Assembly: GCA_026985515.1 (NCBI GenBank) | Contig: JALSQH010000157.1 | Coordinates: 1 to 36,228 of the forward strand | Origin: a bacterium | GTDB taxonomy: Bacteria > JALSQH01 | Direction of reading: 5' to 3' | DNA: 36,228 bases | Shown: in pieces, positions 4,881 to 32,733 of the stretch | Layout of the letters: each line of letters begins with the position of its first letter | How positions within the stretch are numbered: position 1 is the stretch's first letter | The notes under the pieces: model-generated | Databases searched by the model: none | Told to the model about the DNA's origin: nothing | Seen by the model: only the letters and a program-made list of their open reading frames with translations | Position numbers and translations under genes: made by a program

Positions 4881-6097
4881 GAAAGAAGTTTTTTATCCTT
4901 GTAACTCTTTTTATCTTTGCTCTTTTTCTCAGGGAACTCTACAGTATAGGTTTTCATCCATTGTTTCCATCTGCCCTTTTTACGCTGCTGAGTGGTTTTG
5001 CCATACTTGCTGCCTTTTTCGCGGGGCAAATATTTTCCAGTTTCTCCTTTCCCACCATAGTGGGTTATCTTTTTGTAGGGATATTGTTCGGTCCAGGGGT
5101 GATGCATATTTTTTCACACGGAGATATAAAAAATCTTGAGTTTATAACGCAACTTGCTCTTGGACTCATAACGATTTCAGCGGGAAGGGAACTTTCCATT
5201 ACTTCCATAAAAAGTAATCTGATGGTGATATCAAGAACTATTTTAATACACCTCCTCCTAATCCCGGCCATTATGGGAATCTTTATTTACCTTTATTTCA
5301 AGACAGGTGTTGTTGTGGCAATTCTCGTTGGATTGATACTCACAACTTCTTCTCCTGCTGTTCCAATGGCTCTGATAAGTGAATATGAACTTGAGGGAAG
5401 ATTTCCCATTCTTGTTCTTTCAATCCTCATAATGAGAGATATCCTTATAATTTTTATCTTTGCTGCCCTTGGATCAATTGTAACAGGGGGAGGGTGGAAC
5501 TCAATTCTGTGGATAGTTGCTTCTCTCCTGCTGGGGTTCTTCTCAGGATGGCTTTATTCATCTCTTTTGAAATATATGGGGAAATACTCCTTTGTTTTTC
5601 TTCTCTTCTTTTTGCTTGTGATTTATGAAATTTCTCTTGATCTCCCATTTAACTACATTGTGGCAACAGTTTTCTTTGGTTTTTCAGTTGAAAATCTGTC
5701 AAAAAAAGGAGATGAGCTGCTTGAGGTGATTGAGAAGGGTTCTCTACCCCTCTACACAATCTTTTTCAGTCTGGCAGGCGCCTCTCTTGAAATAGATGTT
5801 ATCTTGAAAATTGGATTTATTGCTGCCCTTATCGTTCTCATAAGGGTAATTCTTCTCTTTGTTGCTACCTATTTTGCACTCAAAAAAGAGACATTGAAGT
5901 ATTATTTGTTCACCGGTTTTGTCCCTCAGGCAGGAGTGAGCATAGGGCTGGCGGTGATTTTTGAAAAAATGTTTCCACAGTTTGGAGTAATTGCAGGTCT
6001 GGTAGTTGCTTCTGCAGTAATTAATGAGATACTTGGTCCATTTTTCTTTAAATGGGGTGTCAGCAAGGCTTTATCTGAGAATGTCAGCAATGTGTAG
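4877..6097 (+). CDS. Cation:proton antiporter (CPA family)
   Basis: PTIVGYLFVGILFGP, TTSSPAV, FFSLAGASL, PQAGVSIGLA and INEILGP motifs. Confidence 0.85.
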   Translation: MRKKFFILVTLFIFALFLRELYSIGFHPLFPSALFTLLSGFAILAAFFAGQIFSSFSFPTIVGYLFVGILFGPGVMHIFSHGDIKNLEFITQLALGLITISAGRELSITSIKSNLMVISRTILIHLLLIPAIMGIFIYLYFKTGVVVAILVGLILTTSSPAVPMALISEYELEGRFPILVLSILIMRDILIIFIFAALGSIVTGGGWNSILWIVASLLLGFFSGWLYSSLLKYMGKYSFVFLLFFLLVIYEISLDLPFNYIVATVFFGFSVENLSKKGDELLEVIEKGSLPLYTIFFSLAGASLEIDVILKIGFIAALIVLIRVILLFVATYFALKKETLKYYLFTGFVPQAGVSIGLAVIFEKMFPQFGVIAGLVVASAVINEILGPFFFKWGVSKALSENVSNV

Positions 6098-7783
6098 TTC
6101 TATCTCTTTAAATCCGTTGTAGGTGTTAATGTGGGGGGTGTAAATTATCTCCACTTTGCTTTCCTCAGGTGGTGTGTCTCCCTTCCACCTGAAAGCAATT
6201 GCTGAAAAGCGTTTTCCATCTTCATCTTCAAGAATAAGTTTCAGGTGGTTGCCGGTGGATGTCATGTATCTTTTCTGGACCGTCAGATTCCTTGCCCTGA
6301 AAAGCGGCTCAGGATTTCCTTCACCGTAAGGCTGGAGAAGATTTATCCCTTCCATTAATTCCATACTCAACCTGGAAGGCTGAAGATCGAAATCGTAAGT
6401 TTCAACAATCTCCAGATCCCTTCCTATTCGGGAAACAACCTCTTCAATTCTTTCAATCAACAGGGGAATCTTTTCCTCTTCAATGGTTAAACCTGCTGCC
6501 ATACTGTGCCCACCATAGCTTATAAAGAGGTCTTCCATCTCTTTAAGCACAGAAAACAGATGAATCCCTGGTAATGATCGTCCTGAACCCACAGTTACAT
6601 CTCCCTTGTTTCCAAGTATGAAGGTGGGTTTTCTGAATCTTTCAGCGAGTCTTGAAGCCACCAGTCCTATTATGCCCGGATGCCACTCCGGATTGTAAAG
6701 GACCAGTGTTTTTCTCCCTTCTGCATCTCCTGAGGATGAGTAGTGTTCAAGGGCCTCCTTTTCTATGAGTCTTTCAAGCTCCTGTCTCTCTCTGTTTCTC
6801 TTTTCCAGTTCCCTTGCAATCACGATTCCCTCTTCAAGATTTTCTGAGATGAGCAGACGGAATGGTAGTTCTGTGTCTCCCAGTCTCGCCGAGGCGTTGA
6901 GTCGGGGTGCAATAATAAAACCAACTGTGTAGGGAGTTATCCTGCTGTTTTCAATCCCCGCCACTTTTTTCAATGCCACAAGCCCGGGTCTTTTTGTATC
7001 CTCCAGGACTTCAAGCCCCTTTTTAACAAAAATCCTGTTTGCACCTGTAAGAGGTACAATGTCCGCTATTGTTCCCAGGGCAACCAGATCAAGATACTTT
7101 TTTAGATTGGGCTCTTCTCTTCTTCTGAAGAAACCTGTTCTTCTCAGATAGCTTCTCAATCCTATTACAAAGTAGTAGGCAACTCCAACTCCTGCCAGTT
7201 CCCTTGATGGGAAGGAGCAACCCTTTCTGTTAGGATTGAGAAGGGCAAAAGCCGGGGGAACTCTATCACCAATCTGGTGGTGATCAGTTATTATGACATC
7301 CATTCCATGTGATTGGGCAAACTCAACTTCTCTGTAACTCGATGAACCACAATCCACAGTTATCAGAACGGTGACTCCCTTTTCATATAACACCTTTACA
7401 GCTTCCATTGAGAGGCCATAAGTGTCCGTTATTCTGTTTGGGAGTATGTAGGAAACATTTCTTGCTCCCACCTCTTTTAGAAATAAGTAAAGGAGAGCGG
7501 TACTCGTTATACCATCAACATCGTAGTCACCATGAATGGCAATTTTTTCTTCATTTACAATTGCCCTTGCCACTCTTTTTACAGCTTTTTCCATCTCTCT
7601 GAAGAGGAAGGGATCTGGAAGATCCCTTAGGGAAGGTGAGAGAAATATTTTTGCCTCTTCCGTCGTGGAAATTCCCCGGGCTGATAGCAGCATTCCTATT
7701 TCCCGGGGTAAATTGAGTTCTGTTGAAATCCTCAGTGAAGCGTCCGGGTCAAAGTTTCTTCTGACCCATTTCTTGTCCGTCAA
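6071..7783 (-). CDS. recJ: ssDNA-specific exonuclease RecJ
   Basis: GDYDVDGITS, ITVDCG, IITDHH, LGTIADIVPL, APRLNA, GSGRS and GGHSMAAG (DHH/DHHA1 motifs). Confidence 0.97.
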   Translation of the reverse strand: MTDKKWVRRNFDPDASLRISTELNLPREIGMLLSARGISTTEEAKIFLSPSLRDLPDPFLFREMEKAVKRVARAIVNEEKIAIHGDYDVDGITSTALLYLFLKEVGARNVSYILPNRITDTYGLSMEAVKVLYEKGVTVLITVDCGSSSYREVEFAQSHGMDVIITDHHQIGDRVPPAFALLNPNRKGCSFPSRELAGVGVAYYFVIGLRSYLRRTGFFRRREEPNLKKYLDLVALGTIADIVPLTGANRIFVKKGLEVLEDTKRPGLVALKKVAGIENSRITPYTVGFIIAPRLNASARLGDTELPFRLLISENLEEGIVIARELEKRNRERQELERLIEKEALEHYSSSGDAEGRKTLVLYNPEWHPGIIGLVASRLAERFRKPTFILGNKGDVTVGSGRSLPGIHLFSVLKEMEDLFISYGGHSMAAGLTIEEEKIPLLIERIEEVVSRIGRDLEIVETYDFDLQPSRLSMELMEGINLLQPYGEGNPEPLFRARNLTVQKRYMTSTGNHLKLILEDEDGKRFSAIAFRWKGDTPPEESKVEIIYTPHINTYNGFKEIELHIADILR

Positions 7784-15089: not shown

Positions 15090-17418
15090 ATTTGAAAGAC
15101 CCCTCAAATTCATAATTGAGAATCCCTCAAAACTTAAAAATATTCGTGGTCTTCATTATTACTACAGAAATCTGGCAAAAAAACTTAAAAAACCTGAGGA
15201 TCGCGTACTTGCCCATCACCTTGTCACCCTGTTTGAGAAGTATGATGTGGCTGATGATGAACTCAAGAAAAAAATAATAAAGGAAGCCATAAAGTCTATT
15301 GAAGAATTCAGAAAAAGCCAGAACAGGTGGAGGGAAAAGGTCGACTTTGTGAAGTTCCTTTTTACTCCCCTTGCAGTTGAAGACAGAAGGCTTGAAAAGT
15401 ACTTCAGGAAAAATGGGGTAAAATCTGTTAGAGACCTTCTTCTCTTTCTTCCGGGAAAGTATGTGGACAGGAGAAGGATTACCACTGTTTTTGATGCAAT
15501 GGTTAATAGTGAGGCGGTTATAAAGGGAAAGGTTGTATCCAGGGGAGAAGTAAGAACCCCCGGAGGAAAAAAGTTTTATCAGGTAATACTTAAAGATAAA
15601 ACAGGGGCACTGAAATTAGTATGGTTTAACTACAACAGGGTCTACCCTTCAAAGATGTTTAAAGAGGGGGAAGAGGTTCTGGTGGCTGGAAAAGTTGTTT
15701 TTGACACATTTTCGGGATATAAGAGCATCATTCACCCCGAATTAATTAAGGAGGATAGCTACTCTCCGGGAATAATACCCATTTATCCCCAGGAGAGGTT
15801 TCTTTCACAGGAGAAAGTAAGGGAGAAAATTAAAACATACCTTCAGCAGATTAAAATTGATGATTACCTTCCAGACAGGATTTTGAGTAAAATTGACCTT
15901 CCTTCTTTTAGAGAATCCCTTGAGAAGCTTCATTTTCCCCCTGATAATCTTTCACCGGAAAAATTAAAGGAGGAAAACACCCCATATCACAGAAGGATCA
16001 AGTTTTCCATTTTTTTCCCCTTCCAGCTTGCTCTTGTTTACAGGCGGGAAAAAAACAAAAAGGAGAGGGGAATTGCCTTTAAGTTTTCAGGTGAATTGAA
16101 GAAGAAACTGCTTTCCTCTTTACCGTTTGAACTGACAGGTGCCCAGAAAAGGGTAATTGGAGAAATAGAGAGGGATCTGGTCTCCCCCTTTCCCATGAAC
16201 AGACTGCTTCAGGGTGATGTGGGGAGCGGGAAGACCCTTGTTGCACTGGTGACTGCTCTTGATGTGGTTGAAAGCGGGTATCAGGTTGCACTCATGGCTC
16301 CAACTGAAATCCTGGCAGAACAGCATTATCTCAATATCAGAAGTTTTCTCGAAAAAATTGATATTGGGGTTGCTCTCCTCACGGGCAGTGTTACGGGAAG
16401 AAAGAGGGATGCAATAGTTGAGGCGATAAGAGATGGTCGTGCAAATATTGTGGTGGGAACCCATGCCCTTTTTCAGGAAAAGGTGGAATTCAACAAATTA
16501 GGGTATGTGATAATTGATGAACAGCATCGTTTTGGAGTAATCCAGAGGGCTCAACTGGTTTCCAAGGGGACCAACCCAGATGTTCTTGTTATGACTGCCA
16601 CCCCCATTCCACGAACACTTGCGATGACCACATATGGGGATCTGGATGTCTCCATTCTGGATGAAATGCCACCCGGAAGGAGGCCAGTAAAAACATTTGT
16701 GGTGGAAGAACGGAGAATCAACTTCGTGTTTTCTGAAGTGAAAAAAGCTCTTGAAAGAAAGGAACAGGTTTATTTTGTTTATCCTCTCATTGAAAAATCT
16801 GAAAAACTTGACCTGAAAAATGCCACCGAGATGTTTGAAAACCTGAGAAAAATTTTTAAGGGTTACAATGTGGGGCTTCTCCACGGAAGAATGAGTCCTG
16901 AGGAGAAGGAGTGGATAATGAGGAAATTTCAGAGGGGCGAAATAGATATCCTCGTCAGCACAACGGTAATTGAAGTTGGTGTTGATGTTCCAAATGCTAC
17001 TGTAATGGTAATTGAGCACGCTGAAAGATTTGGGCTTGCTCAGTTGCATCAGTTGAGGGGGAGGGTGGGGAGAAGTGACAAAGAATCAGTATGTTTTCTG
17101 ATAGTTGGAAAAAATGCCGGCAGGCAGGCGTATCAGCGGTTGAGGATCCTTGAGAAGACAGGCGATGGATTCAAAATTGCTGAAGAGGATTTAAAATTGA
17201 GAGGTCCTGGTGAGATACTGGGAACGAGGCAATCGGGTGAGCAGGAGATTCCTTACTCAGATATAATCAGGTACAACGATCTCCTTGCACTGGCAAGGGA
17301 AATGGCAGAAGAGATAATTTCCACTGATCCTGAACTCGTTGTGAATGATCACCAGGCTGTAAAAATGGAAATGTTCAAATTGTGGGGTGAAAGACTGGAA
17401 CTTGGTAAAATTGCCTGA
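15076..17418 (+). CDS. recG: ATP-dependent DNA helicase RecG
   Basis: RLLQGDVGSGKT, DEQHRFG, MTATPIPRTL, QLHQLRGRVGR, DLKLRGPGE. First canonical start is GTG 15247, but the frame is open from 15046; ATA 15076 is proposed (see findings). Confidence 0.95.
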   Translation: MNLNEFERPLKFIIENPSKLKNIRGLHYYYRNLAKKLKKPEDRVLAHHLVTLFEKYDVADDELKKKIIKEAIKSIEEFRKSQNRWREKVDFVKFLFTPLAVEDRRLEKYFRKNGVKSVRDLLLFLPGKYVDRRRITTVFDAMVNSEAVIKGKVVSRGEVRTPGGKKFYQVILKDKTGALKLVWFNYNRVYPSKMFKEGEEVLVAGKVVFDTFSGYKSIIHPELIKEDSYSPGIIPIYPQERFLSQEKVREKIKTYLQQIKIDDYLPDRILSKIDLPSFRESLEKLHFPPDNLSPEKLKEENTPYHRRIKFSIFFPFQLALVYRREKNKKERGIAFKFSGELKKKLLSSLPFELTGAQKRVIGEIERDLVSPFPMNRLLQGDVGSGKTLVALVTALDVVESGYQVALMAPTEILAEQHYLNIRSFLEKIDIGVALLTGSVTGRKRDAIVEAIRDGRANIVVGTHALFQEKVEFNKLGYVIIDEQHRFGVIQRAQLVSKGTNPDVLVMTATPIPRTLAMTTYGDLDVSILDEMPPGRRPVKTFVVEERRINFVFSEVKKALERKEQVYFVYPLIEKSEKLDLKNATEMFENLRKIFKGYNVGLLHGRMSPEEKEWIMRKFQRGEIDILVSTTVIEVGVDVPNATVMVIEHAERFGLAQLHQLRGRVGRSDKESVCFLIVGKNAGRQAYQRLRILEKTGDGFKIAEEDLKLRGPGEILGTRQSGEQEIPYSDIIRYNDLLALAREMAEEIISTDPELVVNDHQAVKMEMFKLWGERLELGKIA

Positions 17419-18063
17419 TCAAATAATCCCCATATTTTTCATGCTCCTGAAAGAGTTATTCCCGACAATGATGTGATCGAGCAGTCTTATTCCCAGAATC
17501 TCCCCGGCTTCCTTAACCCTCTTCGTGAACTCAATATCCGCCTTTGAAGGTGTGGGATCGCCAGATGGGTGGTTGTGACCAAGGATTATTCCGCTCGCAC
17601 TCTCTTTAACTGCTGAAATAAAAATTTCTCTCGGTGTCAGCACAATCCCGTTGCCACTTCCTATTCCCGGTATTTCATATTTTATGACCTGGTTTTTGTT
17701 ATCCAGCATAACAACCATTAGCTTCTCCCTTTCCTCATTCCAGATAAGAGGTTTTATGAAACTGAAGGCATCCTCTGGAGATGTGATTCTTCTTTTCCGC
17801 ACACTCTCCATAGATAATCTTCTGCATATCTCAAAGACCGCTTTGATGGTGACAGCTTTAGCAATACCTATACCCTCAGTCGTGGCAAGTTCTCTGATTC
17901 CAGCTTTTTCCAGGCCTCTCCATCCATTAAATTTGTTGATTATTTTTCTAGAAAGTGTCAAAACATCCTCACCCTTTCTGCCTGTTCTCAGAATAATTGC
18001 CAGAAGCTCATAATCTGAAAGGGATGAAGCCCCACTGTTTATCAATCTTTCTCTTGGAAACAT
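17419..18063 (-). CDS. radC: RadC/JAB domain protein
   Basis: PRERL...LSDYELLAIILRTG, HhH GIGIAKA, HNHPSGDPTPSKAD, LLDHII. Confidence 0.95.
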   Translation of the reverse strand: MFPRERLINSGASSLSDYELLAIILRTGRKGEDVLTLSRKIINKFNGWRGLEKAGIRELATTEGIGIAKAVTIKAVFEICRRLSMESVRKRRITSPEDAFSFIKPLIWNEEREKLMVVMLDNKNQVIKYEIPGIGSGNGIVLTPREIFISAVKESASGIILGHNHPSGDPTPSKADIEFTKRVKEAGEILGIRLLDHIIVGNNSFRSMKNMGII

Positions 18064-18072
18064 CCTGACTCA

Positions 18073-18100
18073 ATTATACAGAATCGTGGTTTAAAATCAA
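18073..18100 (-). promoter_or_regulatory. Putative sigma70 promoter of radC
   Basis: TTGATT-16 nt-TATAAT, 9 nt before ATG. Confidence 0.6.
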
Positions 18101-18122
18101 TTTATTTTATAATAAAAATTTC

Positions 18123-18150
18123 TTGACAAAAACTCAATATTTTGTAAAAT
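18123..18150 (+). promoter_or_regulatory. Putative sigma70 promoter of comM with TTGA-N7-TCAA palindrome
   Basis: TTGACA-16 nt-TAAAAT, 7 nt before ATG 18158. Confidence 0.7.
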
Positions 18151-18157
18151 TGCAAGC

Positions 18158-19705
18158 ATGGAGGTGATAAAAATCAGTTCAGCCACTATAAGGGGAGTTG
18201 AGGCAGTGGAGGTTGAGGTTGAGGTGAGCATTTCCACCTCAGCTTTTCCAACCTTTGTTATTGTTGGACTTGCAGATAATGCTGTTAAGGAGAGCAGAGA
18301 GAGAATAAGGTCAGCCATCTCAAGCACTGGCCTCTCTCTGCCTTCAAAGAAAATTGTGGTAAATCTGGCACCAGCAGGTATTAAAAAAGAAGGAACTTTT
18401 TACGACCTGCCAATCCTCCTTGGTATACTCTCTGGGCTGGGATATGTTGACCCGGGCAGGCTGGAATCGCTCATGGTTGTTGGAGAGGTTTCCCTTGATG
18501 GAAATTTGAGAAAGGTGAGGGGGGTACTACCCGTTGCCCTCCTGGCAAGGGATCTGAATCTCAAGCTTTTAATTCCAGCAGAAAATCTCAGAGAAGCCCT
18601 GATTGTGAACAATCTACCCGTCTGGGGAGTGGGGAACATCACAGAAATCATTGAGGGATTGAATGAGGGAAAGGCAGGATTTGTAATTTCTTCCGGGGGT
18701 GAGGAGAGGACCCTCTATCCTGATTACTCCATTGATTTTTCCGAGGTTAAGGGACAGGAGCAGGCAAAAAGAGCTATCGAAATAGCGGCTGCTGGAGGCC
18801 ATAACATACTGATGGTGGGTCCACCGGGCTCCGGGAAGTCAATGCTTGCAAAGAGAATTCCAACAATACTTCCTCCCATGAACTTTGAAGAAGCCCTTGA
18901 AACAACAAAAATATATTCCATTGCAGGTTTGCTTAAAAAGGATGATTCCCTTATCACAACAAGGCCCTTCAGATCACCACATCACACTATCTCGGATGTG
19001 GGGCTGATAGGAGGTGGGAATCCTCCCCGACCCGGTGAAGTTACACTCAGTCATAATGGTGTCCTCTTCCTGGATGAATTGCCTGAATTCAAGAGAAATG
19101 TTCTTGAAGTATTGAGACAGCCCCTTGAGGATGGTGTGGTTACAGTTACAAGGGCTTCGGGAACAGTCATTTACCCCGCGAGATTCATGCTTGTGGCTGC
19201 AATGAATCCCTGCCCATGCGGCTATCTTACTGACCCGTATCACCAGTGTACCTGCAGTGTATCCCAGATTCAGAGGTATCAGCAGAGGGTATCTGGACCT
19301 CTGCTTGATAGAATTGATCTTCAGATTGAGGTTCCATCAATCAAATACAGAGACCTTTCAACTATAAAAAAAGGGGAAACTTCTCTCAGGATAAGAAAGA
19401 GGGTGTTGAAAGCAAGAAAAATTCAGTGGGAGAGGTACAGGAAGTATGGAATCCACTCCAATGGGATGCTGACACCTTCTCTGATAGAGAAATTTGCACC
19501 TCTGGGAGAAGGGGAAAAGAGAATACTTGAGATTGCAATGGAGAAATTTGGACTCAGTGCCAGAGCTTTTCACAGGGTGATAAAAGTCGCCCGTACCATT
19601 GCAGACCTTGAAGGGGAGGAGAAAATAAGGGAGCATCATCTGACAGAGGCAATTCAGTACAGGATGCTTGACAGGTTAAATTTCAGAATAAAAGTTCAGA
19701 CCTGA
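18158..19705 (+). CDS. comM: ComM/YifB Mg-chelatase-like AAA+ helicase
   Basis: VGLADNAVKESRER, VNLAPA, GPPGSGKSM, RPFRSPHH, GVLFLDELPEF, AMNPCPCG, SGPLLDRID. Confidence 0.95.
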   Translation: MEVIKISSATIRGVEAVEVEVEVSISTSAFPTFVIVGLADNAVKESRERIRSAISSTGLSLPSKKIVVNLAPAGIKKEGTFYDLPILLGILSGLGYVDPGRLESLMVVGEVSLDGNLRKVRGVLPVALLARDLNLKLLIPAENLREALIVNNLPVWGVGNITEIIEGLNEGKAGFVISSGGEERTLYPDYSIDFSEVKGQEQAKRAIEIAAAGGHNILMVGPPGSGKSMLAKRIPTILPPMNFEEALETTKIYSIAGLLKKDDSLITTRPFRSPHHTISDVGLIGGGNPPRPGEVTLSHNGVLFLDELPEFKRNVLEVLRQPLEDGVVTVTRASGTVIYPARFMLVAAMNPCPCGYLTDPYHQCTCSVSQIQRYQQRVSGPLLDRIDLQIEVPSIKYRDLSTIKKGETSLRIRKRVLKARKIQWERYRKYGIHSNGMLTPSLIEKFAPLGEGEKRILEIAMEKFGLSARAFHRVIKVARTIADLEGEEKIREHHLTEAIQYRMLDRLNFRIKVQT

Positions 19706-19716
19706 GGAGGTGAGGT

Positions 19717-19905
19717 ATGAAAGATGTTTATGTTATCATTGAGGGTAAAGAAGGTAGAGACATCTGGCAGAAAATCGGGACTGCCTTTGAAAACAGGGAT
19801 GGATCACTGAATATCTATCTGAATTGCATTCCCCTTTCAGGTAAACTTCATGTGCGGGACAGATTCAACAACGAAGAAAAAGTGGAAGAGGAAGTTGAGG
19901 AGTGA
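19717..19905 (+). CDS. Conserved-looking small beta-rich protein, candidate ssDNA-binding protein
   Basis: Strong SD (GGAGGTGAGG); W-x-x-IG-x-AF-x-NRDGS-LNIYL-x-x-IP-x-x-G-x-L-H-x-RD pattern recalls a widespread DUF736-like hypothetical family; acidic tail. Confidence 0.75.
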   Translation: MKDVYVIIEGKEGRDIWQKIGTAFENRDGSLNIYLNCIPLSGKLHVRDRFNNEEKVEEEVEE

Positions 19906-20361
19906 CTATCCCTCAAGGGTTTTTCTTATGTTGGTCAGGTATCCCTCAACAAGATTTTTTATTTCACTTTCCAGGATTGGCTTTGCAAGTTTTGTCATCA
20001 ATCTGGGAATGGGGGCATCAACAGTTACATCCATGGTGAGGGTGACAGATGTCTCGTCACCTTCACCCTTTAATTCGAATTTTCCCTTTACCTCGGCATT
20101 TCCACTCCCGGGAATCGTTTCCCATGAAACTTCCTTTTGAGGAATATTTGAGAATCTTACATCGTACTGAACTTTGACATTGATTCCCTTTACTCCCACA
20201 GGCTTGAATTCCCAGTGGTAAATTTCTCCTCTCTTTTCTATCTTTTCAAGGTCAGGAACATGAGATGCGGATCTCTCATAATCTGAGAGGAGTTCAAAAA
20301 CTTTTTCCACAGGAGCTTTTATTTTTACTTCTCTTTTAACCACAGTGTTCAACTTTGCCAT
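19906..20361 (-). CDS. SRPBCC/START family protein (CoxG/polyketide cyclase-like)
   Basis: VKIKAPVEKVFELLSDYE...VP; C-terminal amphipathic helix; 151 aa. Confidence 0.85.
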   Translation of the reverse strand: MAKLNTVVKREVKIKAPVEKVFELLSDYERSASHVPDLEKIEKRGEIYHWEFKPVGVKGINVKVQYDVRFSNIPQKEVSWETIPGSGNAEVKGKFELKGEGDETSVTLTMDVTVDAPIPRLMTKLAKPILESEIKNLVEGYLTNIRKTLEG

Positions 20362-20365
20362 TTTT

Positions 20366-21943
20366 TCACCTCACTTTTTTCAGTTTAACAGTCGTTTCAA
20401 TCTCATCACCATCTTCAACAGAAAATTTAAGGTGTTTTTCTTTCCTCCCGGGTGCAGAAATGGAAATTGAGATCTCTCCAGGTGAAACTTTCAATTTTAG
20501 CTCTCCAGGTTCATGTTTTAACACTCTGAATTTAGAGGCTTTAACATTGAATTTGTATTCTTTAACTGGTTCTCTTTTCTCTGTGACGATTTTCAGAGTT
20601 ATTATGGCATGAGGGAATTCTATCTCTTTGAGATTTATTCTCACCACCTCCTGTGTACCTGATTCAACTTCCACAAATTGCTGAGAAGCCTGATAATCGG
20701 GAGCAGTAACCGTTATTGAATAGGTTGCAGGAGGAAGTCCCTTTATTTTGAACATCCCATTTCTGTCTGTGTATGTGGTGGAGGTTACAGGGCCACTTAT
20801 TTTTACTTTAGCATTTTCTACGGGGATCCCTGAAGTTGTTACAAATCCAAGGATACTTCCCGGCAAAATGATTTTTCTCAGTTCAACTTCTAACACTTTT
20901 TTCTCGTCAGGTTGCAATGTCACTTCGGTTGTAAGGCTTCTGTATCCTTCTGCACTGATTGTAAGGGAATATTTCCCAGGAAGTAGATCCAGGTATTTAA
21001 ATGTATTGTCCTGCTTGATATCTGGAGTTACGCCATTTAATTTGACCTCTGCCTTCCCTTTGACATTTTTAACACTGATTGTGAGTTCGGCTCTCTTTTT
21101 TAATGAGATCTGAATTTTTTTCTTTGAAGAAGAGATCTGTGGTGGATGATAGAAAATGGTGAGTTCCAGAGTAACATTGCCCTTTTCCGGGTATCCCTCT
21201 ATGCTTTTTCTGTAAAGCTTCCACTCTGCCACAGGGGTAACAGTTATACAGGGAGTAATTTCAAGGTTAACACCCGTTGATATAAAGAGGGGGACTCCGC
21301 TTCCATAGAGTTTTTCACCTTCAAAGAGAATAAATGGTGAAAAACGGGATAGATTATAAATTGCCCCGATTGAAAAGGGACTCCAGGTGTAGTCAACTTC
21401 TTCCCATGCCATCCTCTCAAAGAGGTCAGGTTCTCTATCAATAAAATTTATTCTTCTGTCGTAGAAGTACCCGAAGTTACCGGTAAAGGTAAGCCTTCCA
21501 GAGATATAATTGAGAATAAGATTGAATAAGTAACTTGAAGTGTCACCATAGGTGCTCTGATCTTTAACAGGGGCAAAAAGGTAAAGTCCTGCATTTAGCC
21601 AGAGGCTCAAATTTTGTCTGAGTTTAATTTTGTAAAAAGTGTTCAGATCAAGGTCTCCAGTGGCAGAAAGCCACTCAACTGAAGGATATGATCTCCTTGT
21701 GAAGGATGCACTCCATCCTGCTTCAAAAACAGCTTCTGTCAGAGGTGAATAAAAACCGAAAATTTTTATTCCAGTTTTCTGATACTCCCCAGGTGAGTTT
21801 GAAGGTGAAAAGTAAAAATAGTTGATTTTACTTCCGGCTCCCCATTTTAGATAGTGTTGAGTAAAGTATGGAAGATTACCTGTTTCGGAAAAGAGGAATG
21901 CTGGAAAAATAAGTGCGAGAACAACATATAGCCTGCCCTTCAT
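20366..21943 (-). CDS. Exported protein: aromatic-rich beta-barrel-like N-half plus PEGA/carboxypeptidase regulatory-like domains
   Basis: Signal peptide; LLPGKYSLTISAEGY; TDRNGMFKIKGLPPATYSITVTAPDY; SPGEISISISAPG. Confidence 0.7.
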   Translation of the reverse strand: MKGRLYVVLALIFPAFLFSETGNLPYFTQHYLKWGAGSKINYFYFSPSNSPGEYQKTGIKIFGFYSPLTEAVFEAGWSASFTRRSYPSVEWLSATGDLDLNTFYKIKLRQNLSLWLNAGLYLFAPVKDQSTYGDTSSYLFNLILNYISGRLTFTGNFGYFYDRRINFIDREPDLFERMAWEEVDYTWSPFSIGAIYNLSRFSPFILFEGEKLYGSGVPLFISTGVNLEITPCITVTPVAEWKLYRKSIEGYPEKGNVTLELTIFYHPPQISSSKKKIQISLKKRAELTISVKNVKGKAEVKLNGVTPDIKQDNTFKYLDLLPGKYSLTISAEGYRSLTTEVTLQPDEKKVLEVELRKIILPGSILGFVTTSGIPVENAKVKISGPVTSTTYTDRNGMFKIKGLPPATYSITVTAPDYQASQQFVEVESGTQEVVRINLKEIEFPHAIITLKIVTEKREPVKEYKFNVKASKFRVLKHEPGELKLKVSPGEISISISAPGRKEKHLKFSVEDGDEIETTVKLKKVR

Positions 21944-21949
21944 GCTTTA

Positions 21950-21978
21950 ATCCTATTAAATTATGATTCATTTGTCAA
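21950..21978 (-). promoter_or_regulatory. Putative sigma70 promoter of the barrel/PEGA gene
   Basis: TTGACA-17 nt-TAGGAT, 6 nt before ATG. Confidence 0.6.
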
Positions 21979-22020
21979 CTTGTGAGGGAACCATCTCACT
22001 ATTTCCTTCTTTGTAAAAAA

Positions 22021-22048
22021 TTGACAAAAATTCAATGAAAAATAAAAT
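22021..22048 (+). promoter_or_regulatory. Putative sigma70 promoter of dprA-topA with ATTGA-N7-TCAAT palindrome
   Basis: TTGACA-16 nt-TAAAAT, 6 nt before ATG 22055. Confidence 0.7.
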
Positions 22049-22054
22049 GAAAGC

Positions 22055-23116
22055 ATGGATTTCAGAGAAAGTAAGCTGTATGCACTGGTCCTTTTATGGC
22101 AGAAGGGGATTGGCTTTTCCCATTTAAAAAATCTTGTGGAGAACTTTAAGACTCCGAGAGAAGCATGGGAAAATTACAGGCAGCACAGATTGTTAAAGGG
22201 TGAGTATTCGGTTGAAGAGTTGCTTGAGAGATCCCTCAAATTGCTTGAGGATCTTGACAGAATGGGGTGGGACCTCCTCTCCATGTGGGATGAAGAGTAT
22301 CCCTCACTGCTTAGAGAGATAGATTACCCGCCGCCGGTGCTTTTCTATAAGGGAGATTTATCTCTTCTGAAGGAAAATATTGTGGCAATCGTGGGAACAA
22401 GGAAGCCCACCTCCTATGGGGAGGAAGTCACAGAGAAAATTGCATCTGAGCTGGCGGAAGCTGATATCCCGGTGGTGAGTGGACTTGCGAGAGGAATTGA
22501 TGCAGTTGCCCACAAATCCGTTATTGAGTCACAGGGAAAGACAATTGCTGTTTTACCATCTCCACCTGATAGAATCTACCCCAGAAGGCATGAGGAGCTT
22601 GCTGAAAAAATAGCGGAGAGAGGTCTCATCCTTTCCGAGTATCTCCCGGGATCGAGGGTTTTTAAACAAAACTTTTATTTGAGAAACAGGATTATCAGTG
22701 GAGTGTCAAAAGCTGTGATAGTTGTTGAGGCTGGTGAGAGAAGTGGGGCACTTATCACAGCCAGGTATGCCCTTGAGCAAAACAGGGAGGTATATGCTGT
22801 GCCGGGTTCAATATTTTCCGACAGGAGCAGAGGAACCAACTACCTTATCAAAATGGGGGCTGTACCTTTTCTTGATACGGAGGATTTTCTCAGGGACCTG
22901 GGGTTGCAAAAAAATTTTTTAAATATACAATTACCAGAACTGGATGATAGAGAAAGGGAAGTTTTTGAACTGATTGAGAAAGACGGAGTTCACTTTGATG
23001 CTCTTCTGAATATGAGTAAAAAAGGTTTTGGAGAACTCATGGATATCCTTTTTAACCTGCAGATAAAGGGTTACATTGAAGAGACACATCCAAATTTTTT
23101 CAGAAGAAAGGTGTAG
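22055..23116 (+). CDS. dprA: DNA-processing protein DprA
   Basis: YPSLLREIDYPPPVLF, VAIVGTR, VSGLARGIDAVAH, RNRIISG, VEAGERSGALITA. Confidence 0.96.
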   Translation: MDFRESKLYALVLLWQKGIGFSHLKNLVENFKTPREAWENYRQHRLLKGEYSVEELLERSLKLLEDLDRMGWDLLSMWDEEYPSLLREIDYPPPVLFYKGDLSLLKENIVAIVGTRKPTSYGEEVTEKIASELAEADIPVVSGLARGIDAVAHKSVIESQGKTIAVLPSPPDRIYPRRHEELAEKIAERGLILSEYLPGSRVFKQNFYLRNRIISGVSKAVIVVEAGERSGALITARYALEQNREVYAVPGSIFSDRSRGTNYLIKMGAVPFLDTEDFLRDLGLQKNFLNIQLPELDDREREVFELIEKDGVHFDALLNMSKKGFGELMDILFNLQIKGYIEETHPNFFRRKV

Positions 23117-25357
23117 ATGAATAAGAAACTTCTTGTGGTTGAGTCCCCCACCAAGGTAAAAACAATTTCAAAATTTCTGGGTAAGGATTTTGTAATAAAG
23201 GCATCGAAGGGTCACGTAAAGGATCTTCCTGAAAATTCCCTGGGAGTTGATGTAACAAATAATTTTAAACCTACCTACATCACGATTAAAGGAAAGGAGA
23301 AGGTAATTAAGGAGATAAGGGATGCTGCTGCAAAGGTTGACGAGATCTACCTGGCTCCCGATCCTGACAGGGAAGGTGAAGCTATAGCCTGGCACATAGC
23401 AGAGGAAATAAGAAAAAAGGTGAAGGATAAGCCCATAAAAAGAGCGGTTTTTCACGAAATTACAAAGAGAGCAGTCGAGGATGCAATAAACAATCCCAGG
23501 GACCTTGATGAAAATCTTTTTAATGCTCAGCAGGCGAGAAGGATTCTGGACAGACTTGTTGGTTACAATTTGAGTCCCCTTCTGTGGGAAAAGGTTAAGA
23601 GGGGATTGAGTGCAGGGAGAGTTCAATCTGTGGCTGTCAAGATTATATGTGAGAGAGAAAAGAAAATCAGAGAATTTGTGCCTGAGGAATACTGGACAGT
23701 CACTGCCCTTCTGAAAGCTTCAACTCCTCCTGAAATCACAGCCAGACTCAGCAAAATTGAGGGTAAAAAAGCTGAGATAAAGAGTGAAGAAGAGGTAAAG
23801 GTTATACTCTCTGATCTTGAAAGTAGCGATTTTGTCGTTGAAAAGGTGGAGAAGAAGGAAGTTAAGAGGAATCCTCCTCCTCCCTTTATAACCTCCACTC
23901 TCCAGCAGGAAGCTTCAAGAAGATTTGGCTACAGTGCGAAAAAAACAATGATGATTGCACAGAGACTCTATGAGGGCGTTGACCTTGGACCGTATGGAAC
24001 GGTGGGGTTAATTACCTATATGAGGACCGATTCTGTAAGAATTGCCGATGAAGCAGTTTCAATGGTTAGAGATTTTATCAGGGAAAAGTATGGGGAGGAA
24101 TTTCTTCCTTCCTCACCTAATAAGTTTAAAAATAAAAATGCTGCTCAGGATGCCCACGAGGCAATAAGACCTACTTCTATGGATTATCCCCCTGACTCCA
24201 TTGAGCAGTACCTTGATAAGGATAGTTTCAGACTTTACAGACTTATCTGGGAGAGGTTTGTCGCATCACAGATGCCTCCTGCCCGCTATGATCAGCATAC
24301 CATAACCATCAGAGCTGGAAAATACACATTTACTGCTACAGGAAAGAAGTTGATTTTTCCTGGCTTCCTGAAGGTGTACAGGGAGCAGGAGGAGGAAAAT
24401 GGTGAAATGATATTTCCAGAAGTGAAGGTGGGTGAGAAACTTGATGTGCTAAAGATAACCCCTGAACAGCATTTTACAAAGCCTCCGCCAAGATTTAATG
24501 AGGGTACCCTTGTCAGGGAACTGGAAGAGAAGGGGATAGGAAGACCTTCAACATATGCTACGATAATCTCTACGATTCAGGAGAGGGGCTATGTAAGAAA
24601 GGAGAAGAATTTCCTTGTTCCAACTGATCTGGGCTTCCTTATAACGGAACTGCTTGATAAGAGTTTTCCTGACATAATGAATGAGAAGTTCACAGCGGAG
24701 ATGGAGGAGAGACTTGATCTGATTGAAGAGGGGAAAAGGGACTGGGTTGAGGATCTCAGAGAGTTTTACAGCAAATTTGAAAGGGATCTTGAAAGAGCCA
24801 GGGAGGAGATGAAAAACATAAAGAAGGAGGGGGTTGAGGTAACCGATGAGGAGTGTCCTGTCTGTGGTGCGAAGCTTGTGGTGAGATATGGCAGGTATGG
24901 AAAATTTCTTGCGTGCAGCAGATATCCGGAGTGTAAGTACACAAGACCCCTGCCTGAAGAGATAGAGTATTCTGATGAGAAGTGCCCGGTGTGTGGCAGC
25001 AGATTAATTATTAAGAGGGGAAAGGGAGGAGTGAGATATCTGGCGTGTGAGAGATATCCAAAGTGCAACTATACTGCTCCCTACTCATTGAAGATAAAGT
25101 GTCCCCAGTGTGGTGAAGGCGAAATTGTTGAGAGGGTGACAGGTAAGGGTAAAATTTTTTACAGCTGCAGCAGGTATCCTGAGTGTAAATTTGCCTTATG
25201 GGATGAGCCGGTGGACCACCCCTGTCCTTCATGTGGTTACCCCATCCTCGTAAAGAAAAAGGGAAGAGGAAAATCCTACTATTACCAGTGTCCATCCTGC
25301 AATTCAAGGTTTAAAAGAGATGAAATAGAGGGGAAAGAAGACTCAGAGAGTTCTTGA
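23117..25357 (+). CDS. topA: DNA topoisomerase I with four C-terminal zinc ribbons
   Basis: VVESPTK, DPDREGEAI, SAGRVQS, ITYMRTDS, GIGRPSTY; CPxC repeats. Confidence 0.97.
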   Translation: MNKKLLVVESPTKVKTISKFLGKDFVIKASKGHVKDLPENSLGVDVTNNFKPTYITIKGKEKVIKEIRDAAAKVDEIYLAPDPDREGEAIAWHIAEEIRKKVKDKPIKRAVFHEITKRAVEDAINNPRDLDENLFNAQQARRILDRLVGYNLSPLLWEKVKRGLSAGRVQSVAVKIICEREKKIREFVPEEYWTVTALLKASTPPEITARLSKIEGKKAEIKSEEEVKVILSDLESSDFVVEKVEKKEVKRNPPPPFITSTLQQEASRRFGYSAKKTMMIAQRLYEGVDLGPYGTVGLITYMRTDSVRIADEAVSMVRDFIREKYGEEFLPSSPNKFKNKNAAQDAHEAIRPTSMDYPPDSIEQYLDKDSFRLYRLIWERFVASQMPPARYDQHTITIRAGKYTFTATGKKLIFPGFLKVYREQEEENGEMIFPEVKVGEKLDVLKITPEQHFTKPPPRFNEGTLVRELEEKGIGRPSTYATIISTIQERGYVRKEKNFLVPTDLGFLITELLDKSFPDIMNEKFTAEMEERLDLIEEGKRDWVEDLREFYSKFERDLERAREEMKNIKKEGVEVTDEECPVCGAKLVVRYGRYGKFLACSRYPECKYTRPLPEEIEYSDEKCPVCGSRLIIKRGKGGVRYLACERYPKCNYTAPYSLKIKCPQCGEGEIVERVTGKGKIFYSCSRYPECKFALWDEPVDHPCPSCGYPILVKKKGRGKSYYYQCPSCNSRFKRDEIEGKEDSESS

Positions 25358-30021: not shown

Positions 30022-32733
30022 ATGGCTGGGAAGAGATCTTATCGTGGTGGTCTTGCCATTATTGATGGAAGTTCCTACATTTTCAGGGCTTACTATGCAA
30101 TTAGAGGACTGAGTAACAGCAAGGGACTTCCCACCAATGCTATTTTTGGTTTTACAAATATGCTCATAAAAACCATTAAGGACCTTTCTCCTGAATATCT
30201 TGTTGTTACCTTTGATTCAAAAGTCCCAACCTTCAGGGCAGACATATATAAAGAGTACAAGGCAAATCGCCCGCCTCCTCCACCAGATCTGGAAGAACAG
30301 ATCAAATGGATAAAAAAGATACTTGAAGCATTCAGAATTAAAGTCATTGAGATGCCAGGCTATGAAGCTGATGATATCATTGCAACTCTTATCAAGAAGT
30401 TCAAGTCTAAAGTTTCTCCCATTGTCATTGTTGCTGGTGATAAGGATTTGATGCAGCTTGTTGATGAGAATGTGGTAATGTATGATTCAATGAAGGATAA
30501 GATTTATGACAGGGAGGGTGTTAAAGAGAAACTGGGAGTTTTTCCTGAGCAGGTTCACGATTTTCTTGCCCTGTCGGGAGATAACATCGACAATATTCCC
30601 GGCATTCCGGGAGTTGGACAAAAAACGGCGAAGGATCTCCTTAACAGGTATGGTTCCATTGAAGGGATATATCAGCACCTTGATGAACTTAAGCCAAAAC
30701 AGAGAGAAAAATTTCAGCAGTACAGGGATCTTCTGGAAGTCAGTAAAAGACTTGTGAAACTGAAGGATGATCTTGAAATTGAAGATGATCTTTCACAGTT
30801 CAAGATACCTGAACCTGACAGGAGGAAATTGAGAGAAATCTTTATGGAGCTGGAGTTCAACAAACTTCTGGAAGAACTTCAGCTTGCATCTGACACTGAG
30901 AAGGAATCTGCAAATATTGAATACAGAACCCTTTTTGATATTGAAGAGATAAAAAGGGAGTTTCTCAAAGCAAAAGAGAAGGGTGAATTATCATTTGATC
31001 TTGAAACAACTTCTCTTGATCCGGTAACAGCTGAGATAGTTGGGATTTCCTTTGCATATGAGGAGGGTAAGGCCTTTTACATTCCGGTTGGTCATCACTA
31101 TATCGGGGTGGAAAAACAGCCCTCTGTAAAGGATGTTCTGGAGGTGATAAAGCCTTTTCTTGAAGATCCTGAAGTTGGTAAAATTGGTCACAACATCAAG
31201 TATGATTACTCTGTGATAAAGAAGTATGGAATAGAAATTGACCCCATCAAACATGATACCATGATTGCTTCTTACCTTCTCAATCCGGAGAAGTTTTCCC
31301 ACAAACTTGATAATCTTTCACTGGAATACCTGGGATACAGAATGATTAAGTATGGTGAGGTGGCAGGAAAGGGAAAAAATGAGAAAAATTTTTCACAGGT
31401 TGACATTGAAACTGCCACGAAATATTCAGCGGAGGATTCTGACATCGCTTTGAAACTTGCCCATATTTTAGAGGAGAAGTTGAAGGAGAACAATCTCTGG
31501 GAACTCTACAGAAAAATTGAGTTACCTCTTATTAAAGTTCTTGCAGATATGGAGTTGAGAGGGGTGCTCATAGATGTGGAACATCTCAAAAATCTTTCCA
31601 GGATGTTTGAGAGGGAACTGGCTTCTCTGGAGGAGAAAATATACGCCTTTGCCGGTGAGAAATTCAATATAAATTCTCCCAGACAGCTTGGCTACATTCT
31701 TTTTGAAAAATTGAAAATGAAAATGCCCGGAAACAAGAAGATAAAGAAAACGAAGACTGGACAGTATTCCACCGGTGAAGAAATTCTTTCTGAACTTGCC
31801 ACAAAGTATGAGCTACCCAAGCTGATTCTTCGCTACAGAACCCTCAGCAAGCTCAAGTCCACCTATGTTGATGCACTTCCACAGATGATAAATCCCGCCA
31901 CCGGGAGAATTCATACGAGTTTCAATCAGACAGTGACAGCGACGGGAAGGCTTTCAAGCAGTGAACCCAATCTCCAGAATATACCTGCCAGGGATTTTGA
32001 AGGAAGAGAAATAAGAAAGGCCTTTATAGCTCCTGAGGGATGGAAGTTGCTGTCTTCCGATTATTCCCAGATTGAGTTGAGAATCATGGCTCATCTCTCA
32101 GGTGATGAGGAATTAAAGAAGGCTTTTTTAGAGGGTAAGGATATTCATACTGAGACTGCCTCAAGAGTCTTTGGGGTGAGTCCTGAGGAAGTTACTCCGG
32201 ACCTGAGAAGAAGAGCAAAAGTGATAAATTTTGGAGTGATTTATGGTATGACACCCCATGGTCTTTCCAAGGAGCTTGGTATTTCCCACTCAGAGGCAAA
32301 GGAGTATATTGATAACTATTTCAGAAAGTTCAGAGGAGTCAGGGAATTTATTGAGAAAACTGTAAGGGAAGCAGAAGAGAGAGGATATGTCACAACGATT
32401 ATGGGAAGACGAAGGTATATACCAGACATAAGAAGTAAAAATCCTGTTCAGAGACAGCTTGCAGTGAGAACTGCCATCAACACCCCCGTTCAGGGATCTG
32501 CGGCGGATATCATCAAACTTGCCATGATTAACATTTATAACAGGTTGAAGGAAACCGGTCTCAGAGCTCATATGCTGATTCAGATACATGATGAGCTTCT
32601 TTTTGAGATTGAGGAGAGTGATGTGGAGAAGGCTGCCAGGATGATCAGAGAGGAGATGGAGAATGTGATAGAACTTTCTGTGCCTCTCAAAGTTGACATT
32701 GGCATAGGAAAGAACTGGGCTGAAGCCCATTAA
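30022..32733 (+). CDS. polA: DNA polymerase I
   Basis: 5'-exo IDGSSYIFRAYY and EADD; 3'-exo DLETT and HNIKYD; polymerase TGRLSSSEPNLQNIP, DYSQIELR, QIHDEL. Confidence 0.98.
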   Translation: MAGKRSYRGGLAIIDGSSYIFRAYYAIRGLSNSKGLPTNAIFGFTNMLIKTIKDLSPEYLVVTFDSKVPTFRADIYKEYKANRPPPPPDLEEQIKWIKKILEAFRIKVIEMPGYEADDIIATLIKKFKSKVSPIVIVAGDKDLMQLVDENVVMYDSMKDKIYDREGVKEKLGVFPEQVHDFLALSGDNIDNIPGIPGVGQKTAKDLLNRYGSIEGIYQHLDELKPKQREKFQQYRDLLEVSKRLVKLKDDLEIEDDLSQFKIPEPDRRKLREIFMELEFNKLLEELQLASDTEKESANIEYRTLFDIEEIKREFLKAKEKGELSFDLETTSLDPVTAEIVGISFAYEEGKAFYIPVGHHYIGVEKQPSVKDVLEVIKPFLEDPEVGKIGHNIKYDYSVIKKYGIEIDPIKHDTMIASYLLNPEKFSHKLDNLSLEYLGYRMIKYGEVAGKGKNEKNFSQVDIETATKYSAEDSDIALKLAHILEEKLKENNLWELYRKIELPLIKVLADMELRGVLIDVEHLKNLSRMFERELASLEEKIYAFAGEKFNINSPRQLGYILFEKLKMKMPGNKKIKKTKTGQYSTGEEILSELATKYELPKLILRYRTLSKLKSTYVDALPQMINPATGRIHTSFNQTVTATGRLSSSEPNLQNIPARDFEGREIRKAFIAPEGWKLLSSDYSQIELRIMAHLSGDEELKKAFLEGKDIHTETASRVFGVSPEEVTPDLRRRAKVINFGVIYGMTPHGLSKELGISHSEAKEYIDNYFRKFRGVREFIEKTVREAEERGYVTTIMGRRRYIPDIRSKNPVQRQLAVRTAINTPVQGSAADIIKLAMINIYNRLKETGLRAHMLIQIHDELLFEIEESDVEKAARMIREEMENVIELSVPLKVDIGIGKNWAEAH

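Follow-up and report, generated by a model that had tools for sequence, protein, structure and literature searches.

The bacterial contig analysed here (36,228 nucleotides (nt) in full, referred to below as the window) carries the genes comM and dprA, each preceded by a promoter in which a 15-bp palindromic box, TTGA-N7-TCAA, is embedded; this box and the genes that it precedes are our subject. The window is contig C157 of G000, a metagenome-assembled genome (MAG) of an uncultured vent bacterium (2.36 Mb in 268 contigs, 41% G+C, 97.6% complete). Gene identities were assigned with Pfam and NCBIfam family models, and gene starts in G000 are crude predictions (n = 1939; intergenic segments, n = 816). 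The window is rich in DNA-metabolism genes, with recJ, recG, radC, comM, dprA, topA and polA lying inside 27 kb (6071-7783, 15247-17418, 17419-25357 and 30022-32733). No Rfam family matches the region. Among public sequencing data four DNA runs and no RNA run were listed with this sequence; contigs from the runs X2-X4 are short and mostly identical to the window, and so contribute nothing to footprinting or to the mapping of transcription starts.

The sequence TTGACAAAAAYTCAAT is found at 18123, on the comM side, and at 22021, on the dprA side, and in both places it forms the -35 element and half of the spacer of a near-consensus promoter of the sigma-70 type on the plus strand. The comM promoter (18123-18150) consists of a -35 TTGACA (18123-18128), a 16-nt spacer and a -10 TAAAAT (18145-18150), and the ATG of comM follows at 18158, 7 nt past the -10. 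The comM gene (18158-19705, plus strand) encodes a YifB-family, Mg-chelatase-like AAA ATPase, which is matched by Pfam and by TIGR00368 (607.9 bits, residues 8-502 aligned to model positions 3-499). The comM-side 16-mer TTGACAAAAACTCAAT occupies 18123-18138, and the box contained in it, box 1 (TTGACAAAAACTCAA, TTGA-N7-TCAA, 18123-18137), covers the -35 together with spacer positions 1-9. The dprA promoter (22021-22048) repeats this arrangement with a -35 TTGACA (22021-22026), a 16-nt spacer and a -10 TAAAAT (22043-22048), and the ATG of dprA is at 22055, 6 nt past the -10. On this side the 16-mer is TTGACAAAAATTCAAT (22021-22036) and box 2, TTGACAAAAATTCAA (22021-22035, plus strand), again overlaps the -35 and the spacer; dprA itself (22055-23116, plus strand) is identified by Pfam DNA_processg_A and by TIGR00732 (265.6 bits, cutoff 191). 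The two promoters had originally been predicted from the letters of the window to be nearly identical, and they are: 15 of the 16 positions agree, both spacers are 16 nt, AAGCATGGA stands at both start codons and the promoters lie 3898 nt apart, as claimed. In a promoter scan of 17900-22200 these two rank best, each with 11 of 12 hexamer positions. With up to two mismatches the 16-mer has two matches in the window against 0.22 expected, a count reached in 3 of 100 shuffles, and with up to one mismatch it is found in the whole G000 genome at the comM and dprA places only.

The generalised box, TTGAYAAAAAHTCAA, is TTGA-N7-TCAA with an A-tract centre. The bare palindrome occurs 111 times in G000, 13 times in crude intergenic DNA, and two of these 13 (C101:1109 and C256:1338) look like the two seeds at comM and dprA, with a centre that is all A/T; they were chosen as look-alikes before their genes were identified. 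The exact consensus has four matches in intergenic DNA, against 0.6 in dinucleotide shuffles, and 3 of 300 shuffles reach four or more. Taken alone, this enrichment is modest, and the weight of the evidence is in the locations: besides the two seeds, the only exact intergenic matches are those in front of a ComF-family gene and of recA-pilT, comEC has the best of the upstream sites with one mismatch, and the good non-seed sites thus precede genes that had been named beforehand (comF, recA and comEC). A position weight matrix (PWM) was trained on the four exact sites and applied to the G000 genome and to 1947 upstream regions in it. It gives 22.4-21.9 at five intergenic places, namely comM (box 1, 22.4, the top score of the genome), recA, comF, dprA (box 2, 22.0) and a place on contig C42, then 19.4 at one intragenic site (C24) and 18.9 for TGGACAAAAAATCAA before comEC, and no more than 15.5 in all remaining upstream regions. 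The scan places the high scores at genes of DNA uptake and recombination, so that the box is not as frequent before housekeeping genes, and it supports the proposal that the box is a competence or DNA-repair operator new for this lineage.

The site at C101:1109 precedes the gene of a 228-aa protein of the ComF family (TIGR00201 aligned over 190 of 190 positions, E 3e-24), with an N-terminal CxxC...CxxC arrangement and a phosphoribosyltransferase domain (Pribosyltran); its promoter is TTGATA-16-TAAAAT, and the ATG lies 7 nt past the -10. The site at C256:1338 precedes recA (TIGR02012, 550 bits), the stop of which overlaps by 14 nt the start of a gene for a PilT/PilU-family ATPase (TIGR01420, 494.6 bits), and recA and pilT look like one operon (C256:1418-3650). 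Here the boxed promoter is TTGATT-16-TAGAAT, recA starts with GTG behind a leader that contains a strong AGGAGG, and a second promoter-like site, TTGACT-17-TAAAAT, which is free of the box, lies downstream of the first. TGGACAAAAAATCAA lies 20 nt before the start of comEC, a GTG 8 nt past the -10, and the box and the -10 fill the 38-nt gap after a LonC-like AAA protease gene on the same strand (C10:9334-11784). The four exact sites (comM, dprA, comF and recA) are alike in geometry: the box and the -35 share their first base, and 16 nt separate the -35 from the -10, a length seen in 31 of 109 promoter-like matches genome-wide, and the centre of the box is about 27-28 bp before the expected start of transcription (about -27.5). 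At recA and comEC the A-tract has the opposite orientation to the gene, with both half-site positions retained; the box therefore looks like a site for a symmetric dimeric protein and not like an extended -35 element. As we read the sequence, a divergent promoter does not account for the second half-site in three of the four exact sites (dprA, comF and recA). Directly observed are where the boxes lie, how they are placed in the promoters, that they are confined to these genes, and what the genes encode.

At comM, dprA and comF the start codon lies 7, 6 and 7 nt past the -10, where transcription itself is expected to start (about 6-8 nt past the -10), and a Shine-Dalgarno sequence would not fit in between. 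The ATGs of comM and dprA are the first possible starts after an in-frame stop, and the matches to the family models start only a few residues into the proteins. If the predicted promoters are used, the mRNAs of comM, dprA and comF would be leaderless, and control would therefore be exerted at transcription initiation; leaderless expression of these competence genes would exclude control through a 5' leader for three operons. Leaderless promoter geometry is common in G000: around the 1939 starts, matches to TTG-N16-18-TAnnnT pile up 6-9 nt upstream (26, 20, 22 and 18 matches, against 3-7 at 10-16 nt), and a Shine-Dalgarno-like motif is present at 882 of the starts. In three leaderless-type promoters of the window AAGC stands directly 5' of the ATG, at comM (18151-18157), at dprA (22049-22054) and at the CarboxypepD_reg gene next to dprA (21944-21978), and these three are the only ones with AAGC in that place among the 18 exact-TTGACA matches listed genome-wide.

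We favour the reading that a transformation regulon specific to this lineage is controlled through TTGAYAAAAAHTCAA as its operator, with a repressor as the most likely binding protein, and give it a probability of about 0.6. The proposed members are comM, dprA-topA, the ComF-family gene, recA-pilT and comEC. A dimeric DNA-binding protein would bind the inverted TTGA and TCAA half-sites, 7 bp apart around the A-tract, and the dimer, seated on the -35 and on the half of the spacer next to it, would keep sigma region 4 off the DNA and block RNA polymerase. Release of the repressor would switch on DNA translocation and single-strand processing together, with the box-free downstream promoter of recA giving basal expression of that gene. 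With promoters already this close to consensus, and with the box lying over the -35 and the adjoining part of the spacer, repression appears to be the most economical mode. We hold with good confidence that the box is a real regulatory site, and within that confidence repression as its mode has somewhat better than even odds; protein binding, the releasing signal and the transformability of the organism are, like repression, predicted features. A competence-type regulon with a new operator and leaderless promoters would be new, and the kind of regulon is already known. A more tentative extension of the same reading is that the system serves as a repressor-gated, competence-centred substitute for the SOS response, in which one repressor couples recA to comEC, comF, dprA, comM and pilT and which arose independently of the model systems.

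The genes around the two boxes of the window can be sorted with respect to this regulon. The topA gene (23117-25357, plus strand; Pfam) is probably co-transcribed with dprA, since it begins at the base after the dprA stop. The radC gene (17419-18063, minus strand) is divergent from comM, and its identity, like those of comM and dprA, is upheld by Pfam and NCBIfam; it has its own promoter, TTGATT-16-TATAAT (18100-18073), which lacks a good box. A weaker promoter-like site directed toward radC, TTGAGT-17-TATTAT (18137-18109, 9 of 12 hexamer positions), uses the reverse half of box 1, so that radC could have an extra distal promoter overlapped by box 1 besides its proximal one. As an explanation of the second half-site such a divergent promoter is possible at comM only, and it fails at dprA, comF and recA. 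The divergent neighbour of dprA, a gene for a CarboxypepD_reg/PEGA protein (20366-21943, minus strand; Pfam), has its own leaderless-type promoter (21978-21950) with the -35 43 nt from box 2, and probably lies outside the regulon. In run X2 a contig of low depth (2 of 4.4) has a deletion of 3 nt immediately behind the dprA box (window position 22037); the gap would shorten the dprA spacer, and it may be an assembly error. The highest background score of the PWM, 15.5, belongs to C7:18771, in front of a gene (18809-20914) for a 701-aa protein with a TadE-like N-terminus; the leaderless-type promoter there is identical to that of comM at 23 of 28 positions and its right half-site reads ACAA, and this gene may be a weak member of the regulon.

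Several points weigh against the regulon. It is inferred from a single MAG and from sequence alone, the consensus of the box was generalised only after the data had been inspected, and the PWM is circular for its own four training sites (comM, dprA, comF and recA). The comEC site has a mismatch in one half-site and stands 2 nt closer to the -10 (5 against 7 nt to TATAAT). One of the top-scoring sites, that on C42, precedes a TatT-like TPR protein and has no promoter geometry, with no -10 properly placed. The protein encoded there is secreted, 267 aa long and without a Pfam or NCBIfam match, and its resemblance to TatT/RMD1-3 TPR proteins comes from language-model features (0.96) and is a lead only. 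Since about 0.5 chance site is expected and no -10 is in place, the C42 site was not counted as a member and is probably fortuitous. The box had also been expected before a wider list of uptake genes, and that expectation was borne out for comF, recA (with pilT) and comEC only: in the upstream PWM scan the box is absent before ssb, before five pilus/secretion loci (C174, C233, C147, C69 and C224) and before umuDC, as well as at a T2SSK-like gene and at polX, and ComEA was not found in the 268 contigs of G000, where two HHH_3 matches belong to the T2SSK-like protein and to PolX. As ssb, the pilus/secretion loci and umuDC lack the box, the box set is not the whole uptake machinery.

Comparative support for the box is likewise absent. 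The phylum is represented in the genome collection searched by two genomes, G000 and G001, the latter being 80% complete and belonging to a sister genus. The original prediction hinged on conservation of the second half-site in relatives, and at comM of G001 the geometry of the promoter is kept (TTGACA-16-TATAAT-7-ATG) while TCAA is missing from the same position; a TTGA-N7-ACAA arrangement is present 8 nt further upstream. For recA, comF and comEC of G001 the contigs end before the upstream regions, and the query used for dprA brought up no match in this 80%-complete genome. In G001 (loci L032 and L158) comM is split in two reading frames and comEC contains an in-frame TAA; either the transformation genes are decaying or the assembly is at fault. 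In other lineages the box precedes none of 80 metagenome comM loci, where the best ComM relative is 56% identical, and none of 29 dprA loci; the 889,914 bases of fetched loci contain a single match to the box, inside a gene of G001. When one genome per species was searched for the box followed by N7 and TAWAAT, at least 119 matches were found scattered over many phyla, and of 80 of the listed loci (L180-L259), which were screened by tblastn with eight regulon proteins, one (L227) lies beside a competence gene. This locus, from an unrelated uncultured MAG (G041), contains the 3' end of dprA, then a 15-mer identical to TTGACAAAAATTCAA, which is followed by TATAAT, and then radC; the 15-mer is found on two contigs that share the dprA end (C35:3889 and C49:2749). 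As G041 has no other intergenic site, we read L227 as chance and not as a related regulon.

The searches of G000 named no regulator for the box, which also counts against the regulon. LexA, in which a winged-helix DNA-binding domain is fused to an S24 peptidase, was not found in G000, the only match to LexA_DNA_bind (PF01726) being below cutoff and on a GntR/FCD protein. The S24 peptidase domain (PF00717) is present only in short UmuD-like open reading frames of 138 and 101 aa that lack a DNA-binding domain. The 138-aa frame is accompanied by a Y-family polymerase gene (C110:8141-10523; L160 1441-3123), even though no LexA was found. TfoX_N (PF04993), ComK (PF06338) and IrrE/ImmA (PF06114) were each found in neither of the two genomes of the phylum, and a response of the DdrO/IrrE type requires the IrrE/ImmA-type metalloprotease that was looked for in this search. 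Three cNMP-binding regulators of the CRP family are encoded in G000; the spacing of the box is 1 bp over the norm of this family, and nothing else links these proteins to it.

The box could instead be bound by an activator, of the CRP/FNR family or MerR-like, that sits over the -35 and recruits or remodels RNA polymerase. The resemblance of TTGA and TCAA to FNR-type half-sites and the three CRP-family proteins would suit such an activator. The competence regulons known from model organisms are driven by activators or sigma factors, as is CRP-S/Sxy (PMC1635313). The hexamers at comM and dprA, however, are already near consensus (11 of 12), so that no activator is needed, the box is centred at about -27.5 and not at -41.5 or -61.5, and the 2-nt shift at comEC would be poorly tolerated by an activator that depends on helical phase; TfoX_N, moreover, was not found. 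The half-sites are separated by N7 in all five sites, whereas CRP and FNR boxes have N6, and the promoter spacers are 16 nt, whereas MerR-type promoters have 19-20 nt. On balance we regard an activator as the main rival, though an unlikely one. Still less probable is that there is no dedicated regulator at all, and that generic, strong, AT-rich, leaderless sigma-70 promoters have become linked to competence genes by chance. TTGACA, TAAAAT and short discriminators are indeed generic and promoters of leaderless geometry are frequent, the consensus was post hoc, the intergenic enrichment is moderate (3 of 300 shuffles), and the box is not conserved at comM of G001. Against chance stand the confinement of the 16-mer with up to one mismatch to the two seeds and the presence of TCAA at spacer positions 6-9 in comM and dprA only, among the 18 exact-TTGACA matches listed (of 109), while the promoter of the ComF-family gene, with its TTGATA, carries TCAA at the same spacer positions. 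The further sites before comF, recA-pilT and comEC have a rough chance of ~(10/816)^2 x 0.01, an estimate which takes about 10 of the 816 intergenic segments to lie in front of genes from the earlier list, and an inverted A-tract with both half-sites, as at recA and comEC, is not something that a promoter needs.

Two further explanations invoke no dedicated regulator of transcription, and we consider both very improbable. The consensus core of IHF is WATCAA-N4-TTR, and the box might be an architectural site for a nucleoid protein of the IHF/HU type, made up of an A-tract and a core of this kind. Read in the orientation of the A-tract, the recA and comEC sites fit (A-tract, AATCAA, 4 nt, TTA), but at comM, dprA and comF either the core or the TTR is missing, the left TTGA half-site is retained where it would be unneeded, and a nucleoid protein would not be expected to have so few sites, all of one functional class. 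The original prediction had also offered a duplicated promoter, and a recent duplication of the promoter segment between comM and dprA would agree with the 15/16 identity, the same -10 and the same AAGCATGGA junction within 3.9 kb; however, the second half of the spacer is identical at 0 of 6 positions, the discriminators differ by 1 nt, the upstream flanks are unrelated and the same box is found on three other contigs, inverted in two of them. A duplication is thus hardly credible, slightly less so even than an IHF/HU site, and a regulon operator, most likely bound by a repressor, remains the reading that we prefer.

If this reading is true, a candidate phylum known from two vent genomes, with no match to LexA, TfoX, ComK or IrrE, uses a new 15-bp operator laid over leaderless promoters to control transformation. 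The regulation of competence is known in detail for few cultured groups and is different in each, and in this uncultured, deep-branching lineage the DNA sequence itself would reveal a regulon of this kind. It would join recA and a PilT-type motor to ComEC, ComF, DprA and ComM, and would omit the pilus structural genes and ssb. One 15-bp site with five promoters makes a concrete, testable hypothesis and may serve as a marker for finding the regulator as further genomes of the phylum become available. The box strings were not found in the literature searched, and a wider search on competence regulons brought up nothing similar among the titles and abstract openings listed. The original prediction held that the box matches no recognised type, and this was borne out in the six upstream regions compared, where CRP-S, CRP, FNR, ComK, ComX and LexA boxes are absent or present as isolated loose matches, none of them shared. 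G000 also contains a second, unrelated family of palindromes with a -35-like hexamer, TTGACA-N4-TGTCAA (16 bp; C85:3264, C152:204, C180:6091, C190:3918, C210:2395, C214:790, C229:5678 and C148:799). The neighbours of these palindromes to which a family could be assigned are of the beta-oxidation type (thiolase/ChsH2, MaoC dehydratase, acyl-CoA synthetase, CoA transferase and acyl-CoA dehydrogenase), and the palindrome is probably the operator of a separate fatty-acid regulon; placing operators on the -35 thus seems to be customary in this genome.

The ComK and ComX/sigma-X regulons of Bacillota include recA, dprA, comF and comEC, and the regulon proposed here overlaps with them in content and resembles them in providing recA with both a basal and an inducible route. 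It differs in that its promoters are of the housekeeping-sigma type and not of an alternative-sigma type, and ComK was not found in either genome; none of the six upstream regions compared contains a K-box or a cin-box pattern. The FNR/FixK-type box, TTGAT-N4-ATCAA, has the same outer half-sites, TTGA and TCAA, and two of the sites described here read TTGAT...ATCAA. All five sites have N7 between the half-sites, one base pair more than the N6 of FNR, with an A-tract in the middle, and the box is centred at about -27.5 and not at -41.5; no FNR pattern with up to one mismatch is present in the six upstream regions.

In the CRP-S/Sxy (TfoX) regulon of Pasteurellaceae, Enterobacteriaceae and Vibrionaceae, one type of site unites the promoters of genes that include comM, dprA, comF and rec2/comEC; this CRP site is 22 bp long, its core half-site is TGCGA, and CRP, cAMP and Sxy are needed as activators (PMC1635313). 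The likeness is one of design, a short symmetric site uniting genes of DNA uptake and of cytoplasmic processing. The differences are that the half-sites in G000 are TTGA and TCAA, separated by N7 and placed inside the core promoter, that TfoX_N was not found, and that recA and pilT are inside the regulon whereas ssb and the pilus genes are outside. Within 250 nt upstream of comM, dprA, comF, comEC and radC there is no CRP-S-like site with up to two mismatches; upstream of recA there are one CRP-S match with two mismatches (-182) and two loose matches of canonical CRP type (-182 and -47), and these do not recur at the other promoters. With the LexA/SOS system the proposed regulon shares a palindromic operator over the core promoter of recA and of DNA-metabolism genes, and repression as the likely mode. 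It differs in its content, which is DNA uptake and processing and not excision repair, in that LexA was not found, and in that umuDC has no box. In the upstream scan recA carries the box and umuD ranks 1234 of 1947; uvrA/B and ruvAB were not located. Among the LexA boxes looked for in the upstream regions there are none of the Cheo type and one loose match of the E. coli type each far upstream of dprA and radC. Judged by the defining features examined, the proposed regulon belongs neither to the CRP-S/Sxy type nor to the LexA/SOS type. Of the known systems, CRP-S/Sxy is thus the closest to the proposed regulon in logic, and LexA is the closest in mechanism.

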